In this document: piece after piece, positions 9,419 to 40,936 of the stretch
Numbering within the stretch: position 1 is the first letter of the stretch
Layout of the letters: each line of letters opens with the position of its first letter
Source of the DNA: an uncultured cyanobacterium
Lineage (GTDB): Bacteria; Cyanobacteriota; Cyanobacteriia; PCC-9006; JAAUQQ01
Reading direction: 5' to 3'
Length of the DNA stretch: 64,000 nt
NCBI GenBank assembly: GCA_963718615.1
Contig: OY970368.1
Coordinates: forward strand, 1,952,001 to 2,016,000
Notes under the pieces: generated by a model
The model's input: the letters and a program-made list of their open reading frames with translations, nothing else
Told to the model about the DNA's origin: nothing
Database searches by the model: none
Translations under genes and position numbers: made by a program

Positions 9419-9447
9419 TATACGGTGTAACCCTAGCTAGCTATGCA
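9419..9447 (-). promoter_or_regulatory. Cluster promoter motif TGCAT-N18-CGTATA upstream of TPR-CHAT 1
   Basis: Minus strand reads TTCCAGATTGCATAGCTAGCTAGGGTTACACCGTATAGATGT. Confidence 0.75.
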
Positions 9448-9473
9448 ATCTGGAAAGATAGAAGAGTCTGTAT

Positions 9474-9971
9474 TTAGGACAAATTCTCCTCATCCACAAG
9501 CTCCAAAACTCGCTGATATAGCTCTGTTGCTATCCAAAAACCAGCTTGATGGACTAACGCATCCAGCAAGGGTTTTACTTTTACAATAAGTCCTCGATTC
9601 TTTGCCTCAACCAATACCCCCAAAATGCCTGTAAAGCGAAGGTTCAATCGAGCTGCGACCAGGCGTCCCCGATGCTCATCCATCAAGAGTTGCTCAGCCT
9701 GAACTTCGACGGCCAAGGCGATCGCTTCTGCTTCTCCCAGATCCAACTCATGACTCAACACGTTAACCAAAGTGCGATCTTTGACGGAATGAGTTGTAAT
9801 CCAGTCAAACGTTTGCACTTCTACTGACCCTGCCACTGGAAAATTTGGGTTGGTTAATTCTCGATAAACAGCCTCAGGAATCAGAATTGTTCCATAGAGA
9901 TCTCGCAAAAGATATAGGTGAGCAATTGCCGCTAAGTTATTAATGGGGGATGTATCACTAACTACAATCAC
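9474..9971 (-). CDS. PIN-domain protein (DUF3368-like), putative toxin
   Basis: MIVVSDTSPI...IPEAVYRE...LDLGEAEAIALA...LLMDEHRGR...TGILGVL; overlaps the upstream small gene by 4 nt. Confidence 0.85.
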   Translation of the reverse strand: MIVVSDTSPINNLAAIAHLYLLRDLYGTILIPEAVYRELTNPNFPVAGSVEVQTFDWITTHSVKDRTLVNVLSHELDLGEAEAIALAVEVQAEQLLMDEHRGRLVAARLNLRFTGILGVLVEAKNRGLIVKVKPLLDALVHQAGFWIATELYQRVLELVDEENLS

Positions 9972-10213
9972 AATCGACCCATCTCTCGCAAATTATTCAA
10001 ATCCTGTTCAAAATCTTCAACTCCGTAGTGAATCGGGATCTGACGACTGGCTAGCAGGTGCTGAAACATCACACGATGCATGCTGGCAAAGCGGCTAGCT
10101 TGGGCCAGCGTCAGCTTGTCTTTTTGAAATAGCATGACTGCGATCTCTTGACGCATTTCACTGGGAGTCATCCGAGCGACAGTCAGAATTTCGCTGGGAA
10201 TTAGAACACTCAT
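9968..10213 (-). CDS. UPF0175-like protein, putative antitoxin
   Basis: 81 aa with EIAVMLFQKDKLTLAQASRFA...HYGVEDFEQDL; AGGAGG RBS upstream; translationally coupled to the PIN gene. Confidence 0.85.
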   Translation of the reverse strand: MSVLIPSEILTVARMTPSEMRQEIAVMLFQKDKLTLAQASRFASMHRVMFQHLLASRQIPIHYGVEDFEQDLNNLREMGRL

Positions 10214-10263
10214 ATCTCACCTCCTGATCTATAACCTAGTCTAACGAAGTTTATGTCTAGCGC

Positions 10264-13200
10264 CTACAGCCCATTGCCAATCAAAATAAACGGAGCCCAA
10301 TGGAAAGGGTGTTTGGGATCAGTGCGTCCTGGAGTCGATCGCCCTGAGACAGAGGTTGGAACGATGGAGGCCCGGAACTTAGTCAAGCGAGTATTGCTAT
10401 CTTCGTTGTATAGTAAGCTAAGCTGAGCCTGCCGCAGAGCTTCGGCTTTAGTGAGTTCGCCGGAGGCCAGCAGCTCGTAGAAGCGTTGCATCAGTAGACT
10501 CGTGCTGTCGTCATTGACAGACCAAAGCGAGGCAATGACAGTTTTGGCACGACTGGCTTTGAGGAAATAGGAGCTCAGTCCTGCGATTTCTGTGCCGTCA
10601 TTGGCTTCACCTCCGAGGGCGGTTTGGCAGGCGGAGAGGACAACGAGATGGAGGTTGCTGAGACGCTCATGGAGGGTGTCGATTTCGGGGATTTTGAGAC
10701 GACTACCATCGCCCAGCACAATGTATGACTCCTGGGGTCGGCCCGGTGTAAAGGCTGCGTGGGTGGCGATGTGGAGAATGCGATGGCCAAGGAGGTTTTT
10801 CTCCAGTTGTTGGCGGGTGAAGTCTTGGTTGAGGTAGGTTTGGCCGGGGTAGATGCCGGTGGGGTCGTTGGGGGCTTGGCGGACGATGCGATCGAGTTCG
10901 TCTTCCACCGCAGGGAGAGGATCGAAGCCAGGGACCGCTTGGCTGAGGCCTAGGCCCAGAACATTGGCTTGGTTGACGGTGCCAAGGGTGTCTTCGGCAT
11001 CGGTGAGGCTGGGTGTGATGACGCTGGAGAGGGTATAGCGTTCGATCAGATACTGTTGGCCATTGAACAGGGCGGCCATGGGGATGTAGCGGGTGACGCG
11101 ATCGTTGACGAAGATCAGGTGTTTGGTTTTGCTCTGTTGCAGGGCGGATTCGAGGGGTTTGATCAGCCAGTCGTGGAGTTTTTGGCTGGTGGTTTGGAGG
11201 GCTTGGAGGTCGTTGCCGGATTGGAGTTGTTCGCGGAACTGTTGGACGGTTTTGGCTAATTCTGCTTGGGTGACGGAAACTTCGATGCTGCCCGCAGCGC
11301 CGGGGACGGCGTAGAGGAGCCAGAGTTTTTGGTCGGTGATGAAGGGATAGATTAAAACTGCATCTGGATTGGCTTTGAGCAGCTTTTCGGCTTCGCCGTT
11401 GAGGTTGTCGGGGTTTTGGAAGATGTCGTCGTCGTGGCGATTTTTGCGAACGTCGGTCTTGAAGGTTTCGACGCTTTGGGTGTACTGAGCCCTCAAGGTA
11501 CCCGACTGTGAAAACAATTGGTCTAACTCGCCACAGTTGGTTTGTTTGCATTCGGTGAGTTTTTTGCCAAAGTCAATGAGGTTGCCGTGGGCGTTGATGA
11601 CGGGTTGTTCGGCGTCGTTGTAGAGGAGTTCTGTGCCGGTCCAGGTGGCGCGGGTGTTGGTGAATTCGCGGAGTTCGGCGAGTTTGAGGAGGTCGAGGAC
11701 TTGTTGGGCTTCGCCGATGCGGCCTTGGCTGAGGAGGAGGTCGGCGAGGGTGCGGTAGGTGTCGGAGATGGAGTTGGTGTAGGATTCTTGGATTTCGCGT
11801 TCAAGGCGGGTGAGGTTGCCGCGAATGTTTTCGTAGGTGTTGATGGCTTGTTTGTAGAAGACGATCGCCAGTTCTGGCTGTTGTTGCTGAATTTGGAGGG
11901 CTCCGAGGTGGGCGAGGGTTTGGGCTTGGGTGGGTCGATCGCCGACTTCCTGGGCAAGGGCTAGGGATTGCTGCAAGGTGGTTTGGGCATCAGCGGTTTG
12001 GTTGAGTTGGGTTTGGGCTTGGCCGATGAGGCTTTGGGTGTGAGCCATTTCTCGTTTTGCGGAAAGTTTTTGGTCAACAGCGAGGGCTTGTTGGAAGAAG
12101 TCTAGGGCTTTTTCGGGTTGGGATTGGGCTAGGTAAACCTGGCCGATGCCGCTGAGAATGTTGCCTTCGCGGCTGAAGGCTCCGTTGGTTTGGGTGATGG
12201 TGAGGGCTTGTTGATAGTAGGCGAGGGCTTGCTGATAGTAGGATGGGTCTTTGGTGGTTTTGCCTTGGATGATATAGGCGCTTGCGATGGCAGTGATTAA
12301 CTCAGCTTCTAGTCCTTGCGCTTTTAATTTTCGAGCTAATGCGAGGGCTTGGTCATATTTATCTAGAGCGCGCTGAAACTGGCCTAGTTTGAGATAGACG
12401 GTGGCAGTTCCTCTTGCAGATTGGATAATTTCTTGTTGATCTCCAACTGTATCGAAGAGTTCTTCTGCTTGTTGACCATATTGAAGTGCAGTGGAATAAT
12501 CTCCTTGTTCAAAATAGCGTGCACTTAGATTGAGGTGTACAACTGCTTGGCCCGCAAGATCTTGATATTCATAATAAATTTTGAGGGCTTGTTGAGAGAA
12601 GCTTTCTGCTTTTACATACTCACCTTGAGCGCTGTAAATTGAACCAATATTATTTAAGTAAATTCCTATCGTTCGCTTAGCATAGTTTTGACCTTCTACA
12701 AGGAGCTTCTGAAGAAAGATTTTCTGAACTGTCTGATCTTCAGAATCTCCACAAAAAACTGAATAATCAGAAAGGTATTTTGAATATTCACTCTTCATTT
12801 CTTGACACCATAGCTTTATATTGCTTGAAATTAATCCTTTTTCAAAAAAATCGTACTCTTGTTGTTTATATTTAATTAATTCATGAAAGATAGACAAGGC
12901 TTTTTCATATTGGCCTTGCTTGTCGTAAATAAAGGCTATATTATTCTGTATGACCTGTGCGACTTCAAAGTGATTCGACTGAAGAGCGACTGATAGAGCT
13001 TGCTCGTAAATCAATAGAGATTGATGATAATCACCCTGATCCGAGTAGATTGCCCCGATCTGAGCAGAAGCCAGGAGTTTTTTTCCAAGAGATATCTTAT
13101 GCTGATACGTACTTAATGCATTGTTTACTAGACGCAATGATCTTTCATATTCTCCACGAAAACTGTAAATACTGGCAATTTCAAGTAATGTAGAAAACTC

Positions 13201-14451: not shown

Positions 14452-14484
14452 GTCGCTTCAGCCCCTATCGTGGTGTACAACATT

Positions 14485-14513
14485 TATACGAATTAGCCCC
14501 AGCCCGTTATGCA
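14485..14513 (-). promoter_or_regulatory. Cluster promoter motif TGCAT-N18-CGTATA upstream of TPR-CHAT 2
   Basis: Minus strand reads TTCCGGATTGCATAACGGGCTGGGGCTAATTCGTATAAATGT. Confidence 0.75.
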
Positions 14514-14699
14514 ATCCGGAAGCTTGATTTAGATTAACAAATCGCCTCCTTCAACCCTCTCCAATTCCCTCGATTTGCTCGTGATATTTTTGCTACCTAG
14601 ATAAAGCCTTGAAAATACTGAATTTAGCCTAAAAATCGATTTTTATCGTCCTTCGAAAAACTCAAAACGCACATCAAAATCCTCGTATTTTGTCGTTTT

Positions 14700-14728
14700 T
14701 GCATACCTAAATTGCTGATGAATAGATA
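14700..14728 (+). promoter_or_regulatory. Cluster promoter motif variant TGCAT-N18-TAGATA upstream of the sigma-like gene
   Basis: TTGCATACCTAAATTGCTGATGAATAGATATA, with the same spacing as the other copies. Confidence 0.5.
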
Positions 14729-14858
14729 TATTTCTGTAATCGTATAAAGCTCATATTGTATAGAGATTATAGAGACTCCATTTCCCCCCTTCAAACCCTG
14801 TAGAATCGCTCTCAACCCGCATTCCTCAACCCTCATCCCCACCCTATCCCCGTTCGCC

Positions 14859-16244: not shown

Positions 16245-16474
16245 GAAAAAAACTAGGGAAAATTGATCTCAATCTAAAGCAAAATTAACCAGCTCAAGTT
16301 ACCTAATCCGAATTGATCCATCTCATAAAATTGTGATCTTAATCAATCTGTGATCCAGATCAAATGCTAATCCAACTCATTAGTGTTTAGATAACAAAAT
16401 CATCTGAGGATCAAAATTTCTAACCTGTTCACTCTTTCTAATCCATTCACGCTCACACTTCACCCTAGAAAATC

Positions 16475-17686
16475 ATGACTACCGATTCCTTTACCTTTGA
16501 GACCGACAACTTTGAGCTAGAGGGCCAAGCCATTTCTGCCGAAGCCATTTGGCTAAGGCCCGAACAAGTGGACCAAGCCCAAGCAGCGGCCAGACAAGTG
16601 CAAGACCCATCCAAACTCTGGAACGTTTACCTCAACAGTTTAGCCCGTCAGGCCTTCGAAATCTGGCTGAAAAAAAGACTCCCCCAGCACACCCCGAAAC
16701 GCTTAGAACCGATCGAATCCAGTCAAAACAGTTGGTCGTTGGATGTGAATGGGTTTCAAATTTGTCTTTTACCCCAGGGCAGTCAGCCGGATGAATTCAT
16801 TTTGATTCCTCAGGACAAAGTAGACAGCCCAACCCAAAACTCGACCCCAAGTCCAAACCAGGGGGTTCATTTTTTTGTCCTGGTGGCGATCGCCGAAGAA
16901 CAGGGATGTGTCGAAATTTGTGCGATCTTGCGCCATGACAAACTCATCCAAAACCGCGCTCTTCTCTCCCGAGACGAAGAAAACCATTATCAAGTTCCCT
17001 TCCATTGGTTTAATCCAGAACCCGAGGATTTGCTGCTGTATCTCCGTTGTGCTGAGCCCGCTGCCTTTAGCTTGGAACCAGTACCGAGCCAGCCAGATCC
17101 GAGCCAGCCAGATCTGATCCAGCCAAACCTGAGGGAAAAAGTTGTGAATACAGCCCTATGGTTAGAAGGAAAACTGGATGCGATCGCCCAAACCCTAGCC
17201 TGGACACTCCTCCCCGCGCCTCCCCTGGAATCAGCCTCAGCCTTTCGCAACCGTGCAGGGGGGATGCAAGAACTGCCCGAGGACTCCAACTATTACCGAT
17301 TGATTCGGGAATTGCGCGATCGCCATATTCCCATTCCAGCAACCGTCCGACCCGCCTATCAAGACTTTGCAATCGCCAAACAAAACGTTCGCCTCTATGC
17401 CCTGTCTTGGTCCCTCGAACTTCCGGAGGAGCAAATCGCAGAATGGATATTAGTGCTGATTGTAGGACCCACACCTGGGATTGCTTTCCCCAAGGATATT
17501 GGTTTGATTGTCGAAGATCAGAACCAGATTTTGCTCAATACTCAATTAGACGATCCAGAGCGAGATCAGTACCTGTTTGCAGAGGTAATTGGAGAGTTTG
17601 ATGAAGTTTTCCAGGTCAAACTCCAACTCAGCGATCAAGTCTTGCCTGTGGTTCCAGCCTTTACGTTTCAGCCCCATCATTCCTGA
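16475..17686 (+). CDS. DUF1822-like protein (candidate anti-sigma factor or protease substrate)
   Basis: WNVYLNSLA...FEIWL N-terminal motif, central SAFRN motif, and a beta-rich C-terminal domain ending GEFDEVFQVKL. No signal peptide. Confidence 0.72.
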   Translation: MTTDSFTFETDNFELEGQAISAEAIWLRPEQVDQAQAAARQVQDPSKLWNVYLNSLARQAFEIWLKKRLPQHTPKRLEPIESSQNSWSLDVNGFQICLLPQGSQPDEFILIPQDKVDSPTQNSTPSPNQGVHFFVLVAIAEEQGCVEICAILRHDKLIQNRALLSRDEENHYQVPFHWFNPEPEDLLLYLRCAEPAAFSLEPVPSQPDPSQPDLIQPNLREKVVNTALWLEGKLDAIAQTLAWTLLPAPPLESASAFRNRAGGMQELPEDSNYYRLIRELRDRHIPIPATVRPAYQDFAIAKQNVRLYALSWSLELPEEQIAEWILVLIVGPTPGIAFPKDIGLIVEDQNQILLNTQLDDPERDQYLFAEVIGEFDEVFQVKLQLSDQVLPVVPAFTFQPHHS

Positions 17687-17724
17687 ATTGTAGCCTGAGT
17701 CGCAGCCTAAATTACACCCTGAAT

Positions 17725-17753
17725 TGCATAGGCGGAGTGCCTTCTAAAAGACA
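17725..17753 (+). promoter_or_regulatory. Weak cluster promoter motif TGCAT-N18-AAGACA upstream of CHAT-CHASE2
   Basis: TTGCATAGGCGGAGTGCCTTCTAAAAGACATA, 40 nt before ATG 17794. Confidence 0.4.
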
Positions 17754-17793
17754 TATTCAGGTATCCCTGATTCCTTTGCATCTTTCATTTCCT

Positions 17794-20166
17794 ATGGCTA
17801 AGCTATCCCTGAGCATCTGGCGTGTTGAACAGACCTGTAACTTTGTTTTAGGTTGGGGAGAGGACTGTCAACTCACTGCGAATCTCAAGGTGTTCCCTAG
17901 CCTTTTAGACTACTATGGGATTTGGCAGGAGGCTTACTTAAATTTCTATCGGTCTAGTCTTCGGGGCAGAGCCCAGCAATCCGGTAGTTTTCCGACTCCC
18001 CCGGTGGATTGGCGGGTCAGGCTGGTCCAAGCGGAGGCGGAGCTGCTCAGCGAGTTTCATCGCTGGTTAAATAGCCGAGATCTCATCGATATTCGTCAGA
18101 AAATTGCAGCACTGGCGACCCCTTCAATAACCTTGCAGCAGCCAGTGGATCTTTTTTTGAGCTGCAATGATGAAGAATTGGCTCGGCTGCCTTGGGAAAC
18201 CTGGGAAATGGGTCGAGAGTTTGGTGTTGCAGGCTCCATTCGGCTCGTTCGGACACCGACCACGATCCGTCAAGAAACGCTGTCCTACCGTCGGCAGGGT
18301 AAGCTCCGACTGTTGGCGATTGTGGGTGATGACACCGGACTAGATTTTCAGCGCGATCGCGAAGCTCTCCAGTCTCTCCAATCCCTGATTGATGTGACAT
18401 TTGTGGGCTGGAAGCAGGGCAAAAAGATTGCAGCCCTACAGGAGGAAATTGTGCAAGCGATCGCCGACCCTCAGGGGTGGGATGTGCTCTTTTTTGCCGG
18501 TCATAGCAATGAAACGGCCATCACGGGGGGAGAATTGGCGATCGCCCCTCATTCCTCAATTCTGCTCCGCGAAATTGCCCCGCAACTGACTGAGGCAAAG
18601 CTACGAGGACTCAAGTTTGCACTGTTTAACTCCTGCAAGGGGATCAGTATTGCCAATGCGTTAATCGACCTGGGATTAAGTCAAGTGGCTGTAATGCGAG
18701 AACCCATTCACAATGAGGTTGCTCAGGCCTTTCTGATTGCCTTTGTGAAGGCTTTAGCTAACTACGAGGATGTTCATCAGGCCATGCGATCGGCCTGTGA
18801 GTATCTCAAGGCCAAACGGAATATCACGTTTCCCTCGGCGGCTCTGGTTCCTTCATTATTTCAGCATCCGGGGGCGGTGTCGTTTCGGCTAGAACCCTCG
18901 GGCCTCAAGTCTTGCTTGCGTCGCTGGGGGCCAACCCGGAGGGAGGCGATCGCCGTGGGGCTTTTGGCTGGCTTGAGTCTGCTCCTTCCAGTCCAGCGAG
19001 AACTCATTGAACAAAGACAGTGGGTGCAAGCTCAGTTTCGCCATCTCACTGCCCAAGGAACGAATCCAGTTTCGTCTGCTAGTGTCTCTCCACCAGTGTT
19101 GCTTGTGCAAATCGATATGGATTCGGTGGCAGACGTCGTGCCAGTTCATCCGCTCAATCGTGCCTACCTCGCCCAGTTGATTCGCCAAGCGAGTCAATTG
19201 AAAGTTTCTCGCCTGGGATTTGATTATTTAGTGGATCGAGTGACTAATCAGAAGGATGATGAATTCCTTTCTTCAGAGCTCTTGAAAGCTGAGCAAGGGG
19301 GAATGAAGATTATTTTTGCAACCCATCAAGAAAATGGTCGTTGGTTGCACCCCCATCCTAAAATTACTGAGGTGTCGCTGGATCAACTGGGTGACGTGAA
19401 ACTCTTTGGCAATCACCAGAAAGCGGTTTTACATGCCAACTTGGATCAGGAGGCCACCGCACCGCTCCCCTTGCCATTTTCCAGATTATTAGTTGGTTCT
19501 AAAAACCCGACAAACCCGGCTGAGCAAACGTTTCAAACCTCTTGGATCACATTACTATCCTATTATCTCCACCAGACTTGGCTCCATCCACTGATTGATT
19601 ATTCACTGCCTCCCAGCCAAATTTACCAACTCGTTTCGGCTAAAACATTTCTGAAGCTGTCTACGCGTGCTTCTGAGTTGAGCCGGATCAAAGACCAAAT
19701 TGTACTGATTGCCGCCGGATATACCGATGCGGGTGTGTCCGATAAGGGAGAAGACAAGAAAAAGGCTGCTCGGGCGATGCAGTTTTGGCTGCGTTCCCAT
19801 ACAACTGAGTGGGTCAATGGGGGCGAAATCCATGCCTATCACATCCATCATCTCATGAACCAGGCGTTCATCACGCCATTGCCCGATTTTTGGTTTGTGG
19901 GATTGGCGGCCCTGTTGGGGAAATGGGGCAGTTTGTCCTTCGGTCGGGGCAGGCATCGACGGGGTTACTGGCTCGGGTTGGCGGGAGGGGCTGGAGTTTA
20001 TGGTTTGGTGAGCTTGCAACTGTATGTGACGGTTCAGATTTTGTTGCCTTGGTTGTTGCCGGTGTTGGTGTTGGGGAGTTATGGGCTGGGGAGTCATGGG
20101 GGAGGCGATCGTCGCCGCTATCTACCAAATCCTAATCCTAATGGTTTAAGAGAGATAGAGACATGA
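17794..20166 (+). CDS. CHAT protease - TM - CHASE2 - 3TM membrane protein
   Basis: N-terminal CHAT (RLPWETW, FFAGHS, FNSCKG), TM AIAVGLLAGLSLLLP, CHASE2-like region (VLLVQID, PLNRAYLAQLI, GFDYLVD, IVLIAAG, GGEIHAY) and three C-terminal hydrophobic helices. ATG 17794 preferred over GTG 17737. Confidence 0.85.
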   Translation: MAKLSLSIWRVEQTCNFVLGWGEDCQLTANLKVFPSLLDYYGIWQEAYLNFYRSSLRGRAQQSGSFPTPPVDWRVRLVQAEAELLSEFHRWLNSRDLIDIRQKIAALATPSITLQQPVDLFLSCNDEELARLPWETWEMGREFGVAGSIRLVRTPTTIRQETLSYRRQGKLRLLAIVGDDTGLDFQRDREALQSLQSLIDVTFVGWKQGKKIAALQEEIVQAIADPQGWDVLFFAGHSNETAITGGELAIAPHSSILLREIAPQLTEAKLRGLKFALFNSCKGISIANALIDLGLSQVAVMREPIHNEVAQAFLIAFVKALANYEDVHQAMRSACEYLKAKRNITFPSAALVPSLFQHPGAVSFRLEPSGLKSCLRRWGPTRREAIAVGLLAGLSLLLPVQRELIEQRQWVQAQFRHLTAQGTNPVSSASVSPPVLLVQIDMDSVADVVPVHPLNRAYLAQLIRQASQLKVSRLGFDYLVDRVTNQKDDEFLSSELLKAEQGGMKIIFATHQENGRWLHPHPKITEVSLDQLGDVKLFGNHQKAVLHANLDQEATAPLPLPFSRLLVGSKNPTNPAEQTFQTSWITLLSYYLHQTWLHPLIDYSLPPSQIYQLVSAKTFLKLSTRASELSRIKDQIVLIAAGYTDAGVSDKGEDKKKAARAMQFWLRSHTTEWVNGGEIHAYHIHHLMNQAFITPLPDFWFVGLAALLGKWGSLSFGRGRHRRGYWLGLAGGAGVYGLVSLQLYVTVQILLPWLLPVLVLGSYGLGSHGGGDRRRYLPNPNPNGLREIET

Positions 20167-20909
20167 AATTCAATGCATTTATGCTCATGGTGCCGGTTTA
20201 TTTCATGGTGAGTGTTCTGAGCCCAGGGGTGACAGTGGCGCAGGGTCAGCCTCAAGGCCGGTCGAGTCGGCTCGGTTGGGGCGAATGGTTAGCCCAACGC
20301 TTTAAGCCTAACCCTCCTTTACCTAAGAGTCCTGGTGTAACAAGGCCAGTGGAAAGGCTCTGTTTGCTGGCTCCGAATCACGAGTATCAAGACCAGGGAA
20401 ACCCCATTGAATCTAGACTTTGGCAGGATCCGGTGTTTTTTTGGACAGGCTCTGTGGCGAAGGTTGGGGTGCGGCAGGCGGGTAGTGAGGCGTTGCTCTG
20501 GACTGTCCCGGTGCAGTTGGATCCGCAGGCAGAGGTGCAGTCGCTTCGCTATGCTGGGCCGCGTCTCGAACCGGGGATGACCTATGAATGGGGGATATTT
20601 CTGTCTGCTGCGGATACGCAACCTCAGATTTTTCGAACGTTTCAGGTGATGGAGCGGGCTGAGCGGGGGCCGGTGGTTAGGGCTTGGTTGCGGGAGGAGA
20701 TTGCACTTCGTCAGACGGGGGCTTCGCCGCAGAATCGGTTGGAGCGACGGCTGGATTTTTTGTTGGAGCGGGAGCTGTTTGCTGATTTTTATCAGGAGTT
20801 GTTTTTTGGGGCTGTGCGGGGGCAGTTGCAGAGGGGAGAACAGGAGATTGTCCAAGGCATACTACAGCAATTCTGTCTTCCTCAAACTCAAATTCAAGGA
20901 TCAAAGTAA
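20163..20909 (+). CDS. DUF928-like secreted protein
   Basis: Signal peptide ending VTVAQ, SPGVTRP...LCLLAP, PVFFW and LEPGMTYEW; ATGA overlap with the CHASE2 gene. Confidence 0.7.
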   Translation: MKFNAFMLMVPVYFMVSVLSPGVTVAQGQPQGRSSRLGWGEWLAQRFKPNPPLPKSPGVTRPVERLCLLAPNHEYQDQGNPIESRLWQDPVFFWTGSVAKVGVRQAGSEALLWTVPVQLDPQAEVQSLRYAGPRLEPGMTYEWGIFLSAADTQPQIFRTFQVMERAERGPVVRAWLREEIALRQTGASPQNRLERRLDFLLERELFADFYQELFFGAVRGQLQRGEQEIVQGILQQFCLPQTQIQGSK

Positions 20910-20966
20910 GAACCCAATTAAATGGCTACGATCTCATGCGATCTAATTTTAACGGAGTAGACAACC

Positions 20967-23900
20967 ATGACTCAGGGGACAAGCATGAAAATAGTTTTTT
21001 TAGGTTCGATAGCAGCAATAATTGTTTTGTTTCTGGCCATTGGTTTAGAGGGAAATGATGGAGTAGCTTGGGCTATAAAGCCAGCCATAGAAAGTAAAAT
21101 ATTGGCACAACAATCTCAAAAAAATCAGGCAGATGAGTTATTACAGTTGGGGATTGAGCAAGCTAATCGTAATCAGTTGCGAGAAGCATTACAGAGTTGG
21201 AAACAGGCGCTAGAACTTTATCGTCAAATCAGCGATCGCCAAGGCGAGGCAAGACTATTGGGTAACCTAGGACATGTATATCTGAGCTTTGATGAATATG
21301 AGGACGCGATCTACCTATATTATCAATCTCTGCACATCTGGCGTGAAATCCGCGATAGCCAAGCTGAAGCAAAAGTGCTGAATCATCTAGGTCTTGCATA
21401 CCGTGGATTAGGAGAATATGAAGGGGCGATTCGTTCCTATCAAAAATCTCTAAAAATCTCGCGTGAAAGCCGCGATCGCCAGAGCGAAATAATGACTTTA
21501 GGTGACTTACGAGCGAGCTACGACGACTTAGATCAGTACGAAAGAACGACTAATTTGCGTCAGCAACCACTGACAGCCAACCGTAAGCTCATTGATCTTT
21601 TTGGTGAAGGGGTTTCTTCGGGTGACTTGTCACCTGTATATAACAATTTAGAAGAATATAAGCAGGCGCTTGAGCTTCATCAAAAATCCTTGGTAATTGC
21701 CAATGAAATCCGCGATCGCCCGCTCCAAGCTAGAGCCTTGAGACATTTAGGGAGTATTCATCTGAGATTAGGCGAATACGAACAGGCAATCAATTTGCAT
21801 CAACAATCTCTAGAGATTGCACGTGAAACTCGCGATCGTCAACTTGAAGCCAGATTGTTGGGGCATTTAGGTAATGTTTATCTGAGTTTAGGTGAATATG
21901 AACGAGTAATTAATTTGCATCAGCAATCGCTAAAGATCGCACGTGAAACTCACGATCGCAAACTTGAAGCCAGAGCCCTGATTGGGTTCGGCAATGCCTA
22001 CTTTTATACCTGTCAAGCCCAGAATGATTCAAGTCAGTGTAAGCTTGCATTCGACCTCTACCAGCAATCTCTGACGATTGCCCAGGAAATTCACGATCGC
22101 CAAGGTCAAGCTGCTGCTTGGAATAATTTGGCAAATTCCTCCCTGCACTTGGGTCAAAATAAACCTGCGATCGACTTTCTTCAACAATCCCTAGAGATTG
22201 CGCGTGAAATTAACGATCGCCAAATTGAAGCAGATTCCCTACACAGCTTGGGTCTTGCCTATGCCAATCAGAAAGATCACACTACGGCTCTCAGCCACTT
22301 TCAACAGGCTCTGATGCTGTTCAAAACCATCGGTGCCCGTGAAGGAGAAGGACTGACCCTCAGCGATCTGGGACGCACCTTCAATGATCTCAATCGCCCT
22401 CAACTGGCCATCATCTTCTACAAGGCATCTGTCAATGTTCGCGAGGCCATCCGAGGGGATATCCAAGGGCTCTCCCTGGAAGAACAACAGTCCTATACCA
22501 ACACCATTGCCGATAGCTATCGCGCCCTAGCAGACCTGCTTCTGCAACAAAATCGTATCCCTGAGGCTCAACGTGTTCTCGACCTACTTAAACTCCAAGA
22601 ACTCGATGATTACTTCCAAGGCATCCAACGCAGTGCCGACAGCCAAACCGGCGTAGGTTCCTCGAAAGCCGAACAAGATATCCTCAATCTCTACATCAAC
22701 CACATTCTTGCCGCCGAAGAACTCGCCAGCCTCACCAAGCGCCCCCCCAAAGACCTCAGCAACCCAGAACGTCAACGTCTGGAAGTACTCCAAGCTGAAC
22801 AAGGCCAAATTTCTCGCGACTTTTCCCAATTTCTCGAACGCGAAGATGTCACCACTGCCCTCAAAGCCCTTAACGCCCACTCAGAAGCCCGAGAAGCCCT
22901 CGAACCTAGACATTTCAAACGACTCAAAGACGACCTGGCTAAACTGCCCCAGCGCAGCGCTCTGCTTTATCCGTTGATTCTGCGCGATCGCCTCGAACTT
23001 GTCCTTGTCTTACCCAACCTAGACCCTGTCCATGTCTCCGTCTCCGTTAGCGCTGAGGAGCTCAACCAACTTATTGTTGCCTTTAGCCAAGACCTCAGCC
23101 GCCCCAATAGCAACCCCCTGCCCCCTGCCCAACAGCTTTACCGTTTGCTAATCAAGCCCCTTGAGCCAGCCCTCAGTGGAGCCCAAGTTACCCACTTATT
23201 CTACGCCCCCGACGGAGCCTTGCGCTATATTCCCCTCGCTGCCCTCCACGATGGGAATGGCCCTAATAATGGGCAATGGTTAACCGAGCGATTCACCCTC
23301 AGCAACATCACCGCTGCTTCTCTCACCGACTTTGCGAGTAACCCCGATCGCAACCTTCGCCTCTTTGCAGGGGCCTGTGCCCAATGCAGCTTTAGTTTCG
23401 AGATCAACGGACGTCCCTACCACTTTCGTGACCTACCCGCGACCCAAACCGAAGTCGAAACCCTAGCCCAAGCCTTTCGTGAGAAAACTGTCCTACTCAA
23501 CCGTGAATTTAGCCCCGCCCAGCTCAAACTCAATTTGGGCTACTACAACTTACTCCACCTTGCCACCCATGGGGCTTTTGTTGAGGGAGACCCAAGGGAA
23601 TCCTTCATTGTGTTTGGAGATGGCAGCCGCGCTAGCCTACGCGAAATCCGCGAAACTTGGGATTTGAGTCGTCAGGAACTGGTTGTGCTCAGTGCCTGCC
23701 AAACGGCTGTGGGGGGATCGCAATTGGGCAATGGGGTGGAGATTTTGGGATTAGGCTATCAAATGCAAGCTTCTGGGGCCAAGGCAACTTTGTCGTCCCT
23801 CTGGCTTGTTAGCGATACAGGAACCCAACGGTTGATGAATCAGTTTTATGCAGCTTTGTTGCAGGGAGATCGCCCCCTCACCAAACCCCAAGCCCTACAA

Positions 23901-24062
23901 CAAGCTCAACGAGCCTTGATCACTGGCAAGTTTGAGGCTGGCCATGATGAGGAACGCGCTTCCGTGGTTGGGGTGGGCGATCGTTCCAGCCAATCAAAGG
24001 AGAACAACCTCAGCCACCCCTACTACTGGGCACCGTTTATCTTGATTGGTAATGGGCTTTAG
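20967..24062 (+). CDS. TPR-CHAT protease 3 with N-terminal signal peptide or TM
   Basis: Hydrophobic leader, TPRs, HLATHG, VLSACQTA, HPYYWAPFILIGN. Confidence 0.92.
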   Translation: MTQGTSMKIVFLGSIAAIIVLFLAIGLEGNDGVAWAIKPAIESKILAQQSQKNQADELLQLGIEQANRNQLREALQSWKQALELYRQISDRQGEARLLGNLGHVYLSFDEYEDAIYLYYQSLHIWREIRDSQAEAKVLNHLGLAYRGLGEYEGAIRSYQKSLKISRESRDRQSEIMTLGDLRASYDDLDQYERTTNLRQQPLTANRKLIDLFGEGVSSGDLSPVYNNLEEYKQALELHQKSLVIANEIRDRPLQARALRHLGSIHLRLGEYEQAINLHQQSLEIARETRDRQLEARLLGHLGNVYLSLGEYERVINLHQQSLKIARETHDRKLEARALIGFGNAYFYTCQAQNDSSQCKLAFDLYQQSLTIAQEIHDRQGQAAAWNNLANSSLHLGQNKPAIDFLQQSLEIAREINDRQIEADSLHSLGLAYANQKDHTTALSHFQQALMLFKTIGAREGEGLTLSDLGRTFNDLNRPQLAIIFYKASVNVREAIRGDIQGLSLEEQQSYTNTIADSYRALADLLLQQNRIPEAQRVLDLLKLQELDDYFQGIQRSADSQTGVGSSKAEQDILNLYINHILAAEELASLTKRPPKDLSNPERQRLEVLQAEQGQISRDFSQFLEREDVTTALKALNAHSEAREALEPRHFKRLKDDLAKLPQRSALLYPLILRDRLELVLVLPNLDPVHVSVSVSAEELNQLIVAFSQDLSRPNSNPLPPAQQLYRLLIKPLEPALSGAQVTHLFYAPDGALRYIPLAALHDGNGPNNGQWLTERFTLSNITAASLTDFASNPDRNLRLFAGACAQCSFSFEINGRPYHFRDLPATQTEVETLAQAFREKTVLLNREFSPAQLKLNLGYYNLLHLATHGAFVEGDPRESFIVFGDGSRASLREIRETWDLSRQELVVLSACQTAVGGSQLGNGVEILGLGYQMQASGAKATLSSLWLVSDTGTQRLMNQFYAALLQGDRPLTKPQALQQAQRALITGKFEAGHDEERASVVGVGDRSSQSKENNLSHPYYWAPFILIGNGL

Positions 24063-25201: not shown

Positions 25202-25229
25202 TATAAGGTTGAACCTCAAAGTTTATGCA
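25202..25229 (-). promoter_or_regulatory. Cluster promoter motif TGCAT-N17-CTTATA upstream of the trypsin gene
   Basis: Minus strand reads CTGCATAAACTTTGAGGTTCAACCTTATAGGT. Confidence 0.55.
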
Positions 25230-27625: not shown

Positions 27626-27654
27626 TATTCATCTGGACGTTCTAGAGATATGCA
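27626..27654 (-). promoter_or_regulatory. Cluster promoter motif TGCAT-N18-TGAATA upstream of the caspase gene
   Basis: Minus strand reads ATTGCATATCTCTAGAACGTCCAGATGAATATG. Confidence 0.5.
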
Positions 27655-27731: not shown

Positions 27732-27760
27732 TGCATAACAGGACATGCCGTCTCCGTACG
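27732..27760 (+). promoter_or_regulatory. Cluster promoter motif TGCAT-N18-CGTACG upstream of the adenylate cyclase
   Basis: TTGCATAACAGGACATGCCGTCTCCGTACGTA. Confidence 0.6.
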
Positions 27761-27803
27761 TACAAGGCAAAAGCAGGACGAAAGCGTTGAGGAGAGTCAG
27801 AGC

Positions 27804-29703: not shown

Positions 29704-29732
29704 TGTACTTAGAGTTGTTGATTGGCTATGCA
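29704..29732 (-). promoter_or_regulatory. Cluster promoter motif TGCAT-N18-AGTACA upstream of the RTX gene
   Basis: Minus strand reads CTGCATAGCCAATCAACAACTCTAAGTACAGAAT. Confidence 0.55.
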
Positions 29733-29900: not shown

Positions 29901-29928
29901 TGCATAGCTTCCCAAGGAACTACAGATA
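29901..29928 (+). promoter_or_regulatory. Cluster promoter motif TGCAT-N17-CAGATA upstream of hypothetical gene 29961
   Basis: CTGCATAGCTTCCCAAGGAACTACAGATATT. Confidence 0.5.
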
Positions 29929-30359: not shown

Positions 30360-30480
30360 TTGACGTTACCCCACCGTCGCCCTACCGTTCTGTACCTTGC
30401 GTAAGTAGGTAAGGGACTATGGGGGATGGTAGGATTGTGGGGGATGGTAGAATAGAGAAGAGGTGTTGAGGGGTAAAGCT

Positions 30481-35983: not shown

Positions 35984-36067
35984 CAGACAACCCCTTGAGT
36001 AAACTGATTCCCTCTTCCAGCCCAGACCCAAACACCAGACCAAAAGACAGAAATGGCAACAGAAGCA

Positions 36068-36096
36068 TATACGGCAGAACCCTCGCAACCTATGCA
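36068..36096 (-). promoter_or_regulatory. Cluster promoter motif TGCAT-N18-CGTATA upstream of TPR-CHAT 4
   Basis: Minus strand reads CTGCATAGGTTGCGAGGGTTCTGCCGTATATG. Confidence 0.75.
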
Positions 36097-36111
36097 GCCG
36101 CCCTTTGGTCT

Positions 36112-36933
36112 ATGATCAAAAACAGGATTCGAATCATCCGCAGCCGCGCCACTCCAGAAGAGATACAAGAAATGCTAGAGAATCTTAGACTTCACCTCAC
36201 CCGTATTCAGGCATTAACTAATAGTGAAACTAATAGTGATGCTGACGAACATATTATTCTCCATCTGATTCGTGAAAGTCAGTACCTGATCGAATGGACT
36301 GTACCCACCCTAGACTTGGAGAAAGACGAGAGCCTGAACATTGCCACAGAACTCATCCGCCTTCAGCGACAACTCAGCCAATGGAAACTGCAATGGCATG
36401 AGCTGTGGGCAGATAGTCGGTCGCGGGAGGCGATCGCAAAAACTGCTCAACAATGGTGTCAATCGATTGACCAGTGGTCCGTACGCTCATCGCGGGTTAG
36501 AAATCAATTCCGATTCAGTGGCCTAAAGGCCATTGCCGATCAGAATGAACGGTGCCCAGTAGTAGGGATGGCTGAGGTTGCCTTTAATCTGTGGGGGTTT
36601 TCCGTCGGCAGTGGCGACAACAATGCTGGCTCGGGAGCCGCCGACTTGGGAATAGTCGTTTTTGATCAGGGCAATCTGGGTTTGGCGGAGGGCTTCGGCT
36701 TTGGGCAGGCCGAGGTCGAGGGCAACGTAGAAGGCGTTCATGAGTTTTTGGGTGCCGCCGTCATCGACTTGCCAGAGGGAGGCAATGGAGGCTTTGGCCC
36801 CGGCGCGTTGGAATTGGTAGCCCAAGCCGAGGATTTCTTGGCCATTGCTAAACTGACCGCCGAGGCCGGTTTCGCAGGCGGAGAGGACAACGAGATCAAC
36901 GCCGTTGAGGTTCCAGGCTTCGATGTCACGTAG
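36112..36933 (+). CDS. Hypothetical protein, probably a fused or eroded remnant; only ~36112-36500 looks genuinely coding
   Basis: MIKNRIRIIRSRATPEEIQEMLE recalls a DUF5674 N-terminus and is followed by ESQYLIEWT...ELIRLQRQLSQW. With no stop, the frame continues antisense into TPR-CHAT 5. Confidence 0.45.
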   Translation: MIKNRIRIIRSRATPEEIQEMLENLRLHLTRIQALTNSETNSDADEHIILHLIRESQYLIEWTVPTLDLEKDESLNIATELIRLQRQLSQWKLQWHELWADSRSREAIAKTAQQWCQSIDQWSVRSSRVRNQFRFSGLKAIADQNERCPVVGMAEVAFNLWGFSVGSGDNNAGSGAADLGIVVFDQGNLGLAEGFGFGQAEVEGNVEGVHEFLGAAVIDLPEGGNGGFGPGALELVAQAEDFLAIAKLTAEAGFAGGEDNEINAVEVPGFDVT

Positions 36934-38766
36934 GGTGACGGGTTTGCCATCGCCAAAGAGGATAAAGGAGTCGTCGGGACTGCCGATGACGAGGGCTCCG
37001 TGGGTGGCAAGGTGGATGATGGTGTGGTCGCCCATTTGGGGGAGGGTGTCCTGGGCGTTGAAGGTGCGATCGAAGAGTTGCACGGTATTGGGAATGAGTT
37101 TGCCCAGATTTTCGACTTCGACTTTGGTGAAGGGGAGGCCGTTGAATTGGAATTGTTCGCCACCGAGGTTAAAACTGTACTGGCCGGTGGTGAAGGCTCC
37201 GGCGAGGATGCTGGGGGGTTTAGGGGGTTGGGGGGTGAGCTGGGTGAGGGCGGCGGCGGTGATGTTGTTGATGCGATAGGTTTGGATCAGCCAGTCTTGG
37301 CCGTCGTGGAGGGCGGCGAGGGGAATATAGCGGAGGATGCCGTCGGGGGCGTAGAGGATGGTTTGGGCTTCAACGGTGGCGAGGTCGGTTTCAAAGTCTT
37401 TGAGCAGCCAGGTGTAGAGTTTTTGGGCGATGGGTTTGGGGTCTTGGCGGGGGTCTTGGAGGGCGGCGCGGAAGGCTTGGATCGTTTGCTGGAGTTCGGT
37501 TCGGGAAACGTTAACGGTGTGGCGGCGGGGTGGGGTTTGGGGGTTGGCGGTGGTGAGGATGAGTTCGATGCGATCGTCAAAAATCACGGGATAGAGCAAG
37601 ACGGCGTGGGGGTCGGCGGCGGCGAGGATGGGTTGGACGCTGAGGAGCCGTGCCATTTCGTCGGCGAGGTCGGGGTCACGGGTTTCGGGGCTGAGTTGGG
37701 CGATCAACTGCTGAACTTGGGGGCTGCGGAGAAATTGGTTGAAGTCTTGGGTGATTTTTTGTTGGAGTTGGAGGAGCTGGTTGAGGCGTTGGTTGTCGGC
37801 GGGGGTGCGTTGGGCGAGGGGGATGGCGCGGAGGCGGGTGAGGTCTTGGCCGATGGGGATGGTTTGGGCGAGGATGTCTTGGATGCCGCTGAGGATGAGT
37901 TGTTCGGGGTGGAGGGTGGGGATGTTGCCGGGGGCGGTGTTGCGGCGGACGTTGGTGAGGTAGTCGTCGAGTTCTTGGATTTTGAGGAGGTCGAGGACGC
38001 GTTGGGCTTCGAGGATGCGGTTTTGTTGGAGGAGGAGGTCGGCGAGGGTGCGGTAGGTGTTGGCGATGGAGTCGGTGTAGGTTTGTTGGAGGGTTTGATT
38101 GAGGGGTTGGAGGGTTTGGCGGATGGTTTCGTAGGTGTTGACGGCTTGTTTGTAGTAGAGGATGGCGAGTTGGGGTTGATTTTGTTGCTCAAGCAATAAT
38201 CCAACGTTGCCTAGGGCTATAGCGAGACCATTGCGATCGCCCATTTCCTCATAAATGGGCTGCGCTTGCTGATAGTATTCCAGTGCCTTGGCGTAGTTGC
38301 TCAAAGAGCCATAGGCAATGCCCTGATTCGTCAGCACGTTAGCCAGACCATTGCGATCGCCCACCTCCTCAAAAATGGGCTGCGCTTGCTGATAGTATTC
38401 CAGTGCTTTGGTGTAGTTGCTCAAGGAGAGATAGGCAACGCCCTGATTCGTCAGCACTTTAGCCAGACCATTGCGATCGCCCACCTCCTCAAAAATGGGC
38501 TGCGCTTGCTGATAGTATTCCAGTGCTTTGGTGTAGTTGCTCAAAGAGCCATAGGCAAACCCCTGATTCATCAGCACGTTAGCCAGACCATTGCGATCGC
38601 CCACCTCCTCAAATATCGGCTGCGCTTGCTGATAGTATTCCAGTGCTTTGGTGTAGTTGCTCAAAGAGCCATAGGCAAACCCCTGATTCATCAGCATGTT
38701 AGCCAGACCATTGCGATCGCCCACCTCCTCAAAAATGGGCTGCGCCTGCTGATAGTGGTAGTCCAA

Positions 38767-39207
38767 TTATGTGGGTGCTGGAGAGAATGAAGCGGCATGA
38801 GCCTGCTTAAGGCGCAATTGCTGGTTGTAATGGTGAACGAAATTCCAGATCGCAGCCTCGTGGTTCTCTTGTTTCTTTGAAAACGAGAGCGCCTTTCGGA
38901 CCAAGCGCGACACCCTTTGCCGCAGGGTGCAGTTGAACCTCTCGATGTAGCTCGTCAGCCCGCTTTCTTTCCCAACCGCTCGGTGGCGTTGGCTAGGAAG
39001 CACACAGGCATAGCTCTCCCAATAATCGGTGTAGATGACTGCACATTGGCGGTACACTCCCGGTAGAGACCGCCATAAAGCTTCGGCAGATTTAGCACTT
39101 CGGTCCCCGATATAAAGGCCAATGATTTCGCGAGTGTCCGCATCTAGAGCAATCCAAACCCACTGTTTATTTCCTTTATGGTCCACGAACGACCAGAGTT
39201 CGTCCAT
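38767..39207 (-). CDS. insB: IS1 transposase, InsB (DDE) part
   Basis: MDELWSFV...WVWIA...YTDYWESY...IERFNCTLRQRVSRLVRKALSFSK. Confidence 0.9.
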   Translation of the reverse strand: MDELWSFVDHKGNKQWVWIALDADTREIIGLYIGDRSAKSAEALWRSLPGVYRQCAVIYTDYWESYACVLPSQRHRAVGKESGLTSYIERFNCTLRQRVSRLVRKALSFSKKQENHEAAIWNFVHHYNQQLRLKQAHAASFSPAPT

Positions 39208-39215
39208 CTGGACCG

Positions 39216-39527
39216 TCAGAGCTTTTTTACTTTCTTCGTCACTTCCACCTCCCGAGCAACGGTTTTAGCTTTGGCGTTGACGTAGGTCTGAATGCAGCTC
39301 TCGGAGCGCTGCATCACCCGAGCAATTCCAGCAATGGCCAGCCTTTCAAGCAATAAACGTTCGAGCAAGGCTATCTCTTCATCGCTCAAGGGAAGGGATT
39401 TCGGAGTCAGGACAAACCGGCGATGGCAATCTCGACATTTATAGCTTTGAGTACCGCGATCGTTGAAGCCGTTACGGCTGATATCTTCAGATAGACAGTT
39501 AGGACAATGAAGCAGCTCTTGAGTCAT
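39216..39527 (-). CDS. insA: IS1 transposase, InsA (Zn-finger/HTH) part, joined to InsB by a predicted -1 frameshift at A AAA AAG (39222-39228)
   Basis: CPNC...YKCRDC. A -1 slip gives ...V K K A L T V Q M D E, in frame with InsB. Confidence 0.88.
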   Translation of the reverse strand: MTQELLHCPNCLSEDISRNGFNDRGTQSYKCRDCHRRFVLTPKSLPLSDEEIALLERLLLERLAIAGIARVMQRSESCIQTYVNAKAKTVAREVEVTKKVKKL

Positions 39528-40829
39528 CGCAATTGGCACAGAAGGGTCTTACCCAGTTTGCTTTTTCTTTCTCTAATGGCCACAACATACTCATCCCCCA
39601 GCTAAAGGCACTACCCTGATAGTATTCCAGCGCTTTGGTGTAGTTGCTCAAGGAGAGATAGGCAAGGCCCTGATTCGTCAGCACTTTAGCCAGACCATTG
39701 CGATCGCCCACCTCCTCAAAAATGGGCTGCGCCTGCTGATAGTATTCCAGTGCTTTGGCGTAGTTGCTCAAAGAGCCATAGGCAAGCCCCTGATTCCCCA
39801 GCACCTTAGCCAGACCATTGCGATCGCCCATTTCCTCATAAATGGGCTGCGCTTGCTGATAGTATTCCAGTGCCTTGGCGTAGTTGCTCAAAGAGCCATA
39901 GGCAATGCCCTGATTCGTCAGCACGTTAGCCAGACCATTGCGATCGCCCACCTCCTCAAAAATGGGCTGCGCTTGCTGATAGTATTCCAGTGCTTTGGTG
40001 TAGTTGCTCAAGGAGAGATAGGCAACGCCCTGATTCGTCAGCACTTTAGCCAGACCATTGCGATCGCCCACCTCCTCAAAAATGGGCTGCGCTTGCTGAT
40101 AGTATTCCAGTGCTTTGGTGTAGTTGCTCAAAGAGCCATAGGCAAACCCCTGATTCATCAGCACGTTAGCCAGACCATTGCGATCGCCCACCTCCTCAAA
40201 AATGGGCTGCGCCTGCTGATAGTATTCCAGCGCTTTGGCGTAGTTGCTCAAGGAGAGATAGGCAATGCCCTGACTCGTCAGCACGTTAGCCAGACCATTG
40301 CGATCGCCCACCTCCTCAAAAATGGGCTGCGCTTGCTGATAGTATTCCAGCGCTTTGGCGTAGTTGCTCAAGGAGCCATAGTCAATGCCCTGATTCATCA
40401 GCACGTCAGCCAGACCTGGGCGATCGCCCACCTCCTCAAATATTGACTGAGCTTGTTGATAAAGTTTAATCGCTTTGCCATAGTCACTCAGGTAGGAATA
40501 GGCAATACCCTGATTCTTCAGCACATTAGCAAGACCACGATCGTCACCCACTTCTTCAAAAATCACCTGAGCCTGCTTCAAAACCTCCAACGCCTCCCGT
40601 GGCTTCCCCGTTTTCCAGAGCCGCTTCCCCTCCTCCAATAACCGCTCCCCCTCCTCCCGCCGCCGCTCCACCCCAACCTCCGACCCCCCAGTTTCTCCCA
40701 CAACCAAAACCCCCTCCAGCTCCGCCCCAACCACCGGCCCCAACCCCAGCCCCAACATCCCCAACGCCAACGCCAAACCCACCCAAAATCGCATTGCCAT
40801 AGATCAACCCAGAGTTCTTCTATTACATC

Positions 40830-40858
40830 TATACGCATTAGCCCCACCGCCCCATGCA
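40830..40858 (-). promoter_or_regulatory. Cluster promoter motif TGCAT-N18-CGTATA upstream of TPR-CHAT 5
   Basis: Minus strand reads TTCCGGATTGCATGGGGCGGTGGGGCTAATGCGTATAGATGT. Confidence 0.75.
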
Positions 40859-40907
40859 ATCCGGAAACTCCCTAGCCCCAAAATAGCCCAGCCCCCTTAG
40901 GCAAAAT

Positions 40908-40936
40908 GGCATAACTCCCCACCCAGACAACAGATA
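40908..40936 (+). promoter_or_regulatory. Cluster promoter motif variant GGCAT-N18-CAGATA upstream of the subtilase
   Basis: TGGCATAACTCCCCACCCAGACAACAGATAAAT. Confidence 0.45.

Follow-up and report, generated by a model that had tools for sequence, protein, structure and literature searches.

A conserved two-block motif is the probable promoter of a cyanobacterial protease regulon and of its own divergent sigma factor

We analyzed a 64,000-nucleotide (nt) stretch of DNA (the window; positions 1,952,001-2,016,000 of the single-contig 6.1-Mb genome of an uncultured cyanobacterium, 52% G+C), in which a short two-block motif, TGCATA followed at a fixed distance by a second hexamer, precedes the genes of a protease cluster. 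The homologues of the window proteins are cyanobacterial. The cluster spans about 5.5-43.3 kb of the window and includes five TPR-CHAT genes, one of them interrupted by the insertion element IS1, together with single genes for a trypsin-like peptidase, a caspase (Peptidase_C14), an adenylate/guanylate cyclase, an RTX-repeat protein and an S8 subtilase. It also contains an operon, here called the sigma operon, that encodes in this order a 461-aa protein, a DUF1822 protein, a CHAT-CHASE2 protein, a 248-aa protein and a TPR-CHAT protein. A DUF3368 toxin-antitoxin-like pair, a PDDEXK_2 gene and IS1 are interspersed in the cluster. An earlier note on this DNA had listed 12 motif sites and read them as promoters recognized by the 461-aa protein, taken to be a sigma factor of the extracytoplasmic function (ECF) type. 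Our analysis indicates that the motif is probably the promoter of a dedicated regulon read by the cluster's own sigma.

The 12 sites all read as the earlier note had described them, at the same positions and in the orientation of the gene that follows (Table 1). The first block is TGCATA in ten sites, TGCATG or GGCATA in the remaining two, and the base after GCAT is A in 11 of 12 (the exception is 40830-40858). The spacer is held in length (17 nt, sometimes 16) and free in sequence, as had been claimed. The second hexamer in the window is degenerate overall (N-R-N-A-Y-A), with CGT in five of the 12 listed sites and in an additional site, 14719-14746, which we consider an equally good promoter candidate for the sigma operon in this lineage. 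Four sites overlap the start of the longest open reading frame (ORF), and in each case a plausible start codon is found 33-99 nt downstream of the second block: ATG 27527 for the caspase (where the protein begins with a twin-arginine (Tat)-like RRHFLQ), ATG 17794 for CHAT-CHASE2, ATG 29961 for the small ORF and ATG 35983 for TPR-CHAT gene 4. The weakest-looking site, 14700-14728, is the counterpart of an element that is conserved upstream of the orthologous sigma genes of other genomes (see below).

Table 1. Genes of the sigma operon and motif sites in the window (G numbers are our labels for other genomes)
Feature	Position	Strand	Remarks
Sigma-like protein, divergent ECF superfamily (proposed), 461 aa	14859..16244	+	First gene of the operon; proposed motif reader
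DUF1822 protein	16475..17686	+	Conserved partner gene; candidate anti-sigma or adaptor
CHAT (caspase-fold)-CHASE2 membrane sensor	17794..20166	+	Likely start ATG 17794; longest ORF 17737-20166
248-aa gene and TPR-CHAT gene 3	20163..24062	+	Without own motif
TGCATA-N17-CGTATA	9419..9447	-	Before TPR-CHAT gene 1 (5523-9383/9392)
TGCATA-N17-CGTATA	14485..14513	-	Before TPR-CHAT gene 2 (10264-14451)
TGCATA-N17-TAGATA	14700..14728	+	159 nt before the sigma-like gene; counterpart of the motif upstream of orthologous sigma genes
TGAATA-N16-CGTATA	14719..14746	+	Overlapping alternative before the sigma-like gene; second hexamer as in TPR-CHAT genes; absent from the earlier list
TGCATA-N17-AAGACA	17725..17753	+	Before CHAT-CHASE2; possible internal promoter; counterparts in G426, G040
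TGCATA-N16-CTTATA	25202..25229	-	Before the trypsin-like peptidase gene (24103-25053/25068)
TGCATA-N17-TGAATA	27626..27654	-	Before the caspase gene (Peptidase_C14), start probably ATG 27527; caspase genes with the motif in G426, G092
TGCATA-N17-CGTACG	27732..27760	+	Before the adenylate/guanylate cyclase gene (27804-28697)
TGCATA-N17-AGTACA	29704..29732	-	Before the RTX-repeat gene (28790-29560); TGCATA 59 nt upstream of an RTX gene in G024
TGCATA-N16-CAGATA	29901..29928	+	Before a small ORF without known family (ATG 29961 to 30359)
TGCATA-N17-CGTATA	36068..36096	-	Before TPR-CHAT gene 4 (31451-35983)
TGCATG-N17-CGTATA	40830..40858	-	Before IS1-split TPR-CHAT gene 5 (5' TPR part 39499-40800, 3' CHAT part 36523-38766)
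GGCATA-N17-CAGATA, weak variant	40908..40936	+	Before the S8 subtilase gene (40982-43300); full motif before an S8 gene in G414

We calculated how often such words would be expected by chance. The pattern TGCAT-N17/18-NNKAYA, which misses three listed sites and has one match (13093-13120) that is coding and not listed, occurs ten times in the window, compared to 2.88 ± 1.67 times in 100 shuffles (maximum 7; none reaches 10). The strict form TGCAT-N18-CGTATA has four matches in the 6.1-Mb genome, all in the cluster and each upstream of a TPR-CHAT gene, and the arithmetic chance of four matches falling within 31.4 kb is 5e-7. When up to two mismatches are allowed, TGCATA-N16-18-CGTATA has 382 matches in the genome, 55 of them promoter-positioned, and eight of these 55 fall in the 40 kb of the cluster, a stretch that makes up 0.66% of the genome; the rough gene call, in which one ORF was too long, concealed a ninth at 36068. 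Non-coding TGCATA was seen nine times in the cluster where 0.82 is expected (about 11-fold, Poisson P 2e-7), and its eight coding occurrences there show no enrichment. Unbiased enumeration of two-block words in the non-coding DNA of the window ranked TGCAT-N18-CGTA first, with five segments. All 11 intergenic TGCAT[AG] words of the cluster point toward the downstream gene, and none was found before the mobile and toxin-antitoxin genes (DUF3368, PDDEXK_2, IS1) or before the flanking housekeeping genes.

Conventional promoters were sought by scanning positions 9300-29290 (a range that leaves out the sites at 29704, 29901, 36068, 40830 and 40908) for TTGACA-N16-18-TATAAT with at least nine of 12 matches; none of the 27 matches was a motif site, and their number was not above that in shuffles (19 ± 4.8). 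Two sigma-70-like matches, TTGAAA-N16-AAAAAT (14609-14636, plus strand) and TTGAAG-N17-TATAAT (14766-14794, minus strand), lie where TPR-CHAT gene 2 and the sigma operon diverge and are possible basal promoters. Elsewhere in the genome, a motif before a second DUF1822 gene (2,941,776) was dropped, as the sigma-like gene ahead of it extends over the site with its 3' end.

Among 401 sampled cyanobacterial genomes, 45 have a member of the family of the 461-aa protein (E <= 1e-60), and the order sigma-like gene, DUF1822, CHAT-CHASE2 recurs at nine loci in eight other genomes; at the loci examined, the DUF1822 gene always follows the sigma gene. For 40 foreign loci we collected 300 nt upstream of the sigma-like orthologue. 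TGCATA ranks first of all 4096 hexamers in these regions, with sense occurrences in 27 loci and an antisense occurrence in one, and it lies between -58 and -197 relative to the sigma-like start codon. This strict orientation, together with the fixed distance between the blocks and the position before the start codons, supports the reading of the motif as a promoter. The full form TGCATA-N15-GA-NN-TA is present upstream of the orthologue in 22 of the 40 loci, and the cross-genome consensus is aaaaC-TGCATA-aG-N12-yAGA-AnTA; we take the hexamer counts over the 40 loci as the fair figures, because the consensus columns that were used for picking sites are inflated. The conserved form emerged after aligning the upstream regions of the sigma genes. 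Exact two-block enumeration in the first nine foreign loci gave repeats and hairpins only, the coding repeats of TPR genes dominated a dyad count made on entire loci, and the form seen in the window (TGCAT-N17-19-CGTA and similar) did not recur in those nine loci. A third, independent set of 30 metagenome loci, found with a closer alignment and including four pairs that look like duplicate filings, has sense TGCAT[AG] upstream in 17 of them. In one of the eight genomes with the conserved gene order (G426, L106:4645-7433), a DDE transposase interrupts the DUF1822 gene, and the surrounding motif-bearing target genes look intact.

In the metagenome loci, a strict pattern has 22 matches in 434,532 nt around the homologues, compared to none for its backwards control. 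Genome-wide, TGCATA-N14-AGA-NN-TA has 35 matches versus two for the control in five gene-bearing genomes, and six versus seven in five genomes of the same taxonomic family that lack the gene. The absence of an excess in genomes without the gene shows that the motif is part of the sigma/protease system rather than a general promoter type. In three genomes that belong to three other genera, many of the matches lie within 20 kb of the sigma gene (6/10 in G414, 4/7 in G426 and 3/6 in G092), and the sites are found about 60-140 nt before genes for TPR-CHAT, CHAT, S8 subtilase, caspase (C14 + DUF4384), CHAT-CHASE2, small TPR and sigma proteins, target families that match those of the window. Further examples in other loci precede DUF1822, M48 peptidase, aspartyl protease and RTX genes. 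Since the motif precedes orthologous sigma and target genes in other genera, it can be regarded as a conserved regulon promoter.

The nature of the 461-aa protein was approached mainly through its relatives. It has no Pfam match, and its TIGR02937 score (E 1e-3, 18.7 bits) is below the cut-off of 42.9; four of 30 family members match TIGR02937 and four of 30 match Sigma70_r4_2. The genome has seven DUF1822 genes, and the six outside the window each follow an ORF of about 270-430 aa. We aligned these six linked ORFs and compared their profile with that of the 461-aa family, which gave a match over 315 columns (97.9% probability, E 6.5e-13). Three of the six linked proteins match TIGR02937 end to end (profile positions 2-164/165) with 67-92 bits, have a long insertion that separates the two sigma halves, and also match Sigma70_r4 (E 2e-5 to 2e-8, 24-34 bits; Pfam cut-off 24.1). 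Residues 76-190 of the 461-aa protein align with the part of these proteins that TIGR02937 covers from position 2, and a region 4 helix-turn-helix can be assigned to it by the same homology. The profile of the six linked proteins weakly touches SigI region 2 (E 0.022), and the Atlas neighbours of one homologue are cyanobacterial 'sigma-70 family' clusters. We therefore propose, from this remote homology, that the 14859-16244 product is a very divergent ECF-superfamily sigma whose sigma-2-like and sigma-4 parts are separated by a long insertion, in agreement with the earlier note; genes of this kind are named ECF sigma factors in the available text of Kaur et al. 2021.

The six other DUF1822 systems have sigma-like genes starting at 1751682, 2241390, 2160937, 2586532, 2942967 and 755423. 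Upstream of two of these genes (2241390 and 2160937) another word is conserved, GCTTAC...TTTCTGTATCGT, which hints that each DUF1822-linked sigma system may have its own promoter specificity.

Several links point to the local sigma as the reader of the motif: the motif precedes the sigma's own gene in distant lineages, its targets are confined to the sigma's neighbourhood, its excess co-occurs with the gene, and the system has no other conserved DNA-binding gene. The site at 14700-14728 and those of the foreign orthologues would place a target promoter on the sigma's own operon, as expected of an autoregulated sigma. Where the recognition helix could be read (46 loci), 32 of the 39 loci whose helix is aromatic (Q-[YFHW]-[QE]-V) have TGCAT, versus none of six with Q-[VI]-Q-V, and TGCATG was seen solely with a Q[YF]EV helix (8/8). 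Autoregulation, co-occurrence and this co-variation lead are consistent with the earlier note's attribution of the motif to the 14859-16244 sigma, and the motif is most likely the switch by which this sigma turns on the whole gene set, as far as comparative sequence evidence can indicate.

A number of observations weigh against this interpretation. TGCAT is absent upstream of the sigma gene in nine of the 40 foreign loci, TGCAT[AG] is absent in 13 of the 30 metagenome loci, and no clustering of matches near the sigma gene was seen in G294 (0/5) and G240 (0/7). The second block differs by lineage, being CGTATA without AGA here versus AGA-AnTA in others, and TGCATA-N14-NGA-NNTA has no match in this cluster. 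The five weakest sites of the window rest mainly on TGCATA and on motif-bearing orthologous genes in other genomes. A sigma-like paralogue at 5,653,070 (locus 5649343-5654488, with the order CHAT-CHASE2, DUF928, sigma-like) has no clear TGCATA motif; its locus is without a DUF1822 gene. Regarding the protein, a six-frame genome search with Pfam Sigma70_r2 found 11 other sigmas, none of them DUF1822-linked; hhalign against four ECF sigmas of the same genome aligned 30 columns of region 4 only (38.5% probability); and a PDB profile search gave weak helix-turn-helix matches only, with SigF region 4 at E 0.13. Moreover, co-variation of helix and motif is a lead rather than a test because related genomes share both features, and co-occurrence cannot separate the reader from its targets because the cluster is present or absent as a unit.

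We considered whether the resemblance between the sites could be a by-product of duplication of the TPR-CHAT 5' regions combined with chance matches to short words, without regulatory meaning. Three of the four strict sites do share flanks (ttccgGAT...gATGTtgta) and stand before paralogous genes, and these common flanking bases indicate that the three promoters are themselves paralogous; moreover, the weaker second hexamers carry little information. When the four strict promoters are aligned, however, only TGCAT, CGTATA and the spacer bases GGG.T are invariant (mean identity 57%), so that the blocks are kept while spacer and flanks drift, and the flanks of the fourth promoter are not alignable. 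The motif also precedes the cyclase, RTX, caspase, trypsin-like and sigma genes, which are unrelated to the TPR-CHAT genes, and the same word stands before orthologous genes of distant genera in flanks that cannot be aligned. The earlier note's argument that duplication alone does not account for the sites therefore holds, and given the non-coding enrichment as well, we attach hardly any probability to a meaningless resemblance. Conservation on one strand ahead of coding regions would be equally expected of a word that acts in the RNA, as a protein-bound or folded leader element. Such an element is very improbable: no RNA-fold signal relative to shuffles was detected at the 12 window sites (mean z -0.21, no site below -2) or at 25 foreign sites (mean z 0.38, one site below -2), no Rfam match was found at the motif, and the spacer is fixed in length and free in sequence.

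The remaining alternatives accept a regulatory site and differ in what reads it. TGCATA might be an activator site instead of a -35 element, with an ordinary sigma recruited, perhaps by the C-terminal helix-turn-helix of the 14859-16244 protein acting as a classical transcription factor. The sigma-4-like helix-turn-helix is indeed the only part of the protein that was detected directly, there is no sigma-2 match, and the second block is degenerate. We regard this possibility as unlikely, given that the motif has a single strict orientation without dyad symmetry and a fixed 17 nt to the AGA-AnTA or CGTATA block, that no sigma-70-like hexamers were reported at the sites scanned (9300-29290), and that the 315-column homology to full sigma70-ECF-model proteins includes the region before the helix-turn-helix. 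It is still less probable that another sigma, of the HetZ family or of group 3, reads the promoter while the local sigma-like protein has other targets. According to the available text of Hu et al. 2026 (PNAS, PMC13342950), HetZ is a long ECF-type sigma with three insertions that is missed by sigma-2 models and reads TCCGGA-N16-17-TGnA. Its -35 word TCCGGA abuts the 5' side of TGCAT at 14514-14521 and 40859-40866 (TCCAGA at 9448-9455), and TGCATA-N16-CGAATA occurs 63 nt upstream of the HetZ_rel_2 gene of this genome. However, at these two of the 12 sites TGnA is missing at 16-17 nt from the TCCGGA words, with GCTA or GGCT there instead; we thus rejected identity with the HetZ (DIF1) promoter. 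The cross-genome consensus has aaaaC rather than TCCGGA before TGCATA, the motif excess is confined to genomes with the local sigma gene, and the motif precedes that gene itself in 27 of the 40 foreign loci. Membership of the protein in the HetZ family was rejected as well: it does not match NF037963, NF037964 or NF037965 (one of 30 family members matches NF037965, E 0.004), and hhalign of its family against the HetZ family of the genome gave 3% probability, with only the helix-turn-helix aligned.

The genome has a HetZ_rel_2 gene (159559-160701) and a HetZ gene (162692-163834), both above the NCBIfam cut-offs, and a HetZ-related gene (4265503-4266855) just under its cut-off (606.8 versus 612 bits). 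The TGCATA-N16-CGAATA word before HetZ_rel_2 may connect the two sigma systems.

Returning to a promoter read by the cluster's own sigma, we propose a mechanism that builds on the motif, its non-random placement, its conservation before sigma and target families, and the remote ECF homology of the sigma, all of which were computed here. The promoter would consist of TGCATA, 17 (sometimes 16) bases, and a hexamer with A fixed at the fourth place, CGTATA on the TPR-CHAT genes of this genome and AGA-AnTA in most other lineages. RNA polymerase carrying the 14859-16244 sigma would initiate transcripts a few bases past the second block, and the motif on the sigma gene itself would provide positive feedback. 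The sigma would be co-transcribed with DUF1822 and the CHAT-CHASE2 sensor, and the 248-aa gene and TPR-CHAT gene 3 are probably part of the same transcript. In analogy to ECF systems that are controlled by anti-sigma factors or gated by proteases, we infer that DUF1822 may act as an inhibitor (anti-sigma) and CHAT-CHASE2 as the releasing protease, so that the sigma would be kept inactive until the sensor is triggered. The freed sigma would then turn on at least ten transcription units, whose products include the five TPR-CHAT proteins, the caspase with its Tat-like signal, the trypsin-like peptidase, the S8 subtilase, the RTX-repeat protein and the nucleotide cyclase. The caspase N-terminus (from ATG 27527) has a twin-arginine-like signal, KRRHFLQ, and among the starts looked at, TPR-CHAT1, TPR-CHAT4, the S8 subtilase and the trypsin-like peptidase have hydrophobic, signal-like N-termini; because the peptidase starts are hydrophobic or Tat-like, the proteases of the regulon are probably exported.

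More speculatively, the locus might work as a sigma switch that amplifies itself, is gated by a protease and serves a collective response. In this tentative scenario, CHASE2 would perceive an outside signal, CHAT would cut or release DUF1822, and the sigma would boost its own operon, whereupon caspase-, subtilisin- and trypsin-like proteases would flood the envelope together with a cyclic-nucleotide signal, as a cell-death or defence programme of filamentous cyanobacteria. The seven DUF1822-linked sigmas would then be orthogonal sigma/promoter pairs.

IS1 (InsA and a DDE_Tnp_IS1 ORF, 38767-39539) splits TPR-CHAT gene 5 into the two parts given in Table 1, and the promoter-like site of this gene is still intact. 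A 312-aa ORF without family (35995-36933, plus strand) spans the gap at 36089-36522 and runs into the end of the CHAT part on the opposite strand. The DUF3368 (PIN-like) gene and a small upstream ORF (9474-10214) lie between two TPR-CHAT genes without a TGCAT motif and probably form a toxin-antitoxin pair. The PDDEXK_2/DUF4351 gene (30463-31476) has a 26-nt overlap with the 3' end of TPR-CHAT gene 4.

Multicellular cyanobacteria are rich in caspase-fold proteins (CHAT, C14), for which a connection with cell death and immunity has been drawn on paper. The 2021 prediction for this system ended at a sigma that may regulate many genes, and a promoter word with a target list makes the caspase-linked pathway directly testable. 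The proposed sigma would also represent a second family of long, insertion-bearing ECF-type sigmas beside HetZ that is missed by standard domain models, and the DUF1822-linked systems offer candidate orthogonal sigma/promoter pairs for cyanobacterial engineering.

Autoregulated ECF sigmas such as RpoE, SigW and SigX are proteins of about 200 aa that read two short blocks about 16-17 nt apart, with the same promoter on their own operon and a co-transcribed regulator; the classical ECF promoter has AAC in its -35 and CGT in its -10 element. The system described here resembles them in block spacing, in the self-promoter, in the co-transcribed partner and in the CGT of the second block at some sites. 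It differs in a first block without AAC, in a second block with AnTA in most lineages, in a sigma of about 460 aa and in DUF1822, which is not a known anti-sigma family. Identity with the classical ECF -35 was rejected, as AAC is found in the first block of neither the 12 window sites nor the cross-genome consensus. The earlier note had compared the motif to ECF promoters with a CGT-containing -10; the CGT is there at the sites counted above, but it is peculiar to the TPR-CHAT genes of this genome, and the cross-genome second block, AGA-AnTA, lacks it.

The closest known arrangement is the EACC2-caspase/sigma/DUF1822 gene triad predicted by Kaur et al. 2021. As far as its available text describes it, that system likewise combines a sigma-like gene, DUF1822 and a caspase-fold protein with a C-terminal CHASE2 sensor, with the sigma as a transcriptional output over many genes, and the first three genes of the sigma operon have the adjacency of this triad (CHAT + CHASE2 being encoded by the 17737-20166 ORF). 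The available main text names no promoter and no target genes, whereas both are defined here. HetZ is described in the available text of PMC13342950 as being checked by a co-transcribed partner and as driving many genes via DIF1 promoters in heterocyst-forming cyanobacteria. Like HetZ, the proposed sigma is a cyanobacterial protein of ECF type that has large insertions and escapes standard sigma-2 models; the two also share a similar two-block promoter geometry and a co-transcribed partner, which is inhibitory in HetZ. In contrast, the two belong to different families by the profile comparison above and differ in promoter words (TGCATA with AnTA/CGTATA versus TCCGGA with TGnA), in partner (DUF1822 versus PatU) and in targets (proteases versus heterocyst genes). 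Our literature search, covering main texts, found no published account of the promoter word or the regulon, and no promoter is given in the available main texts on DUF1822. What is known, then, is the gene triad, autoregulated ECF promoters and the precedent of an insertion-bearing sigma; what is new is the promoter word, its conservation, and a regulon of mostly signal-bearing proteases.

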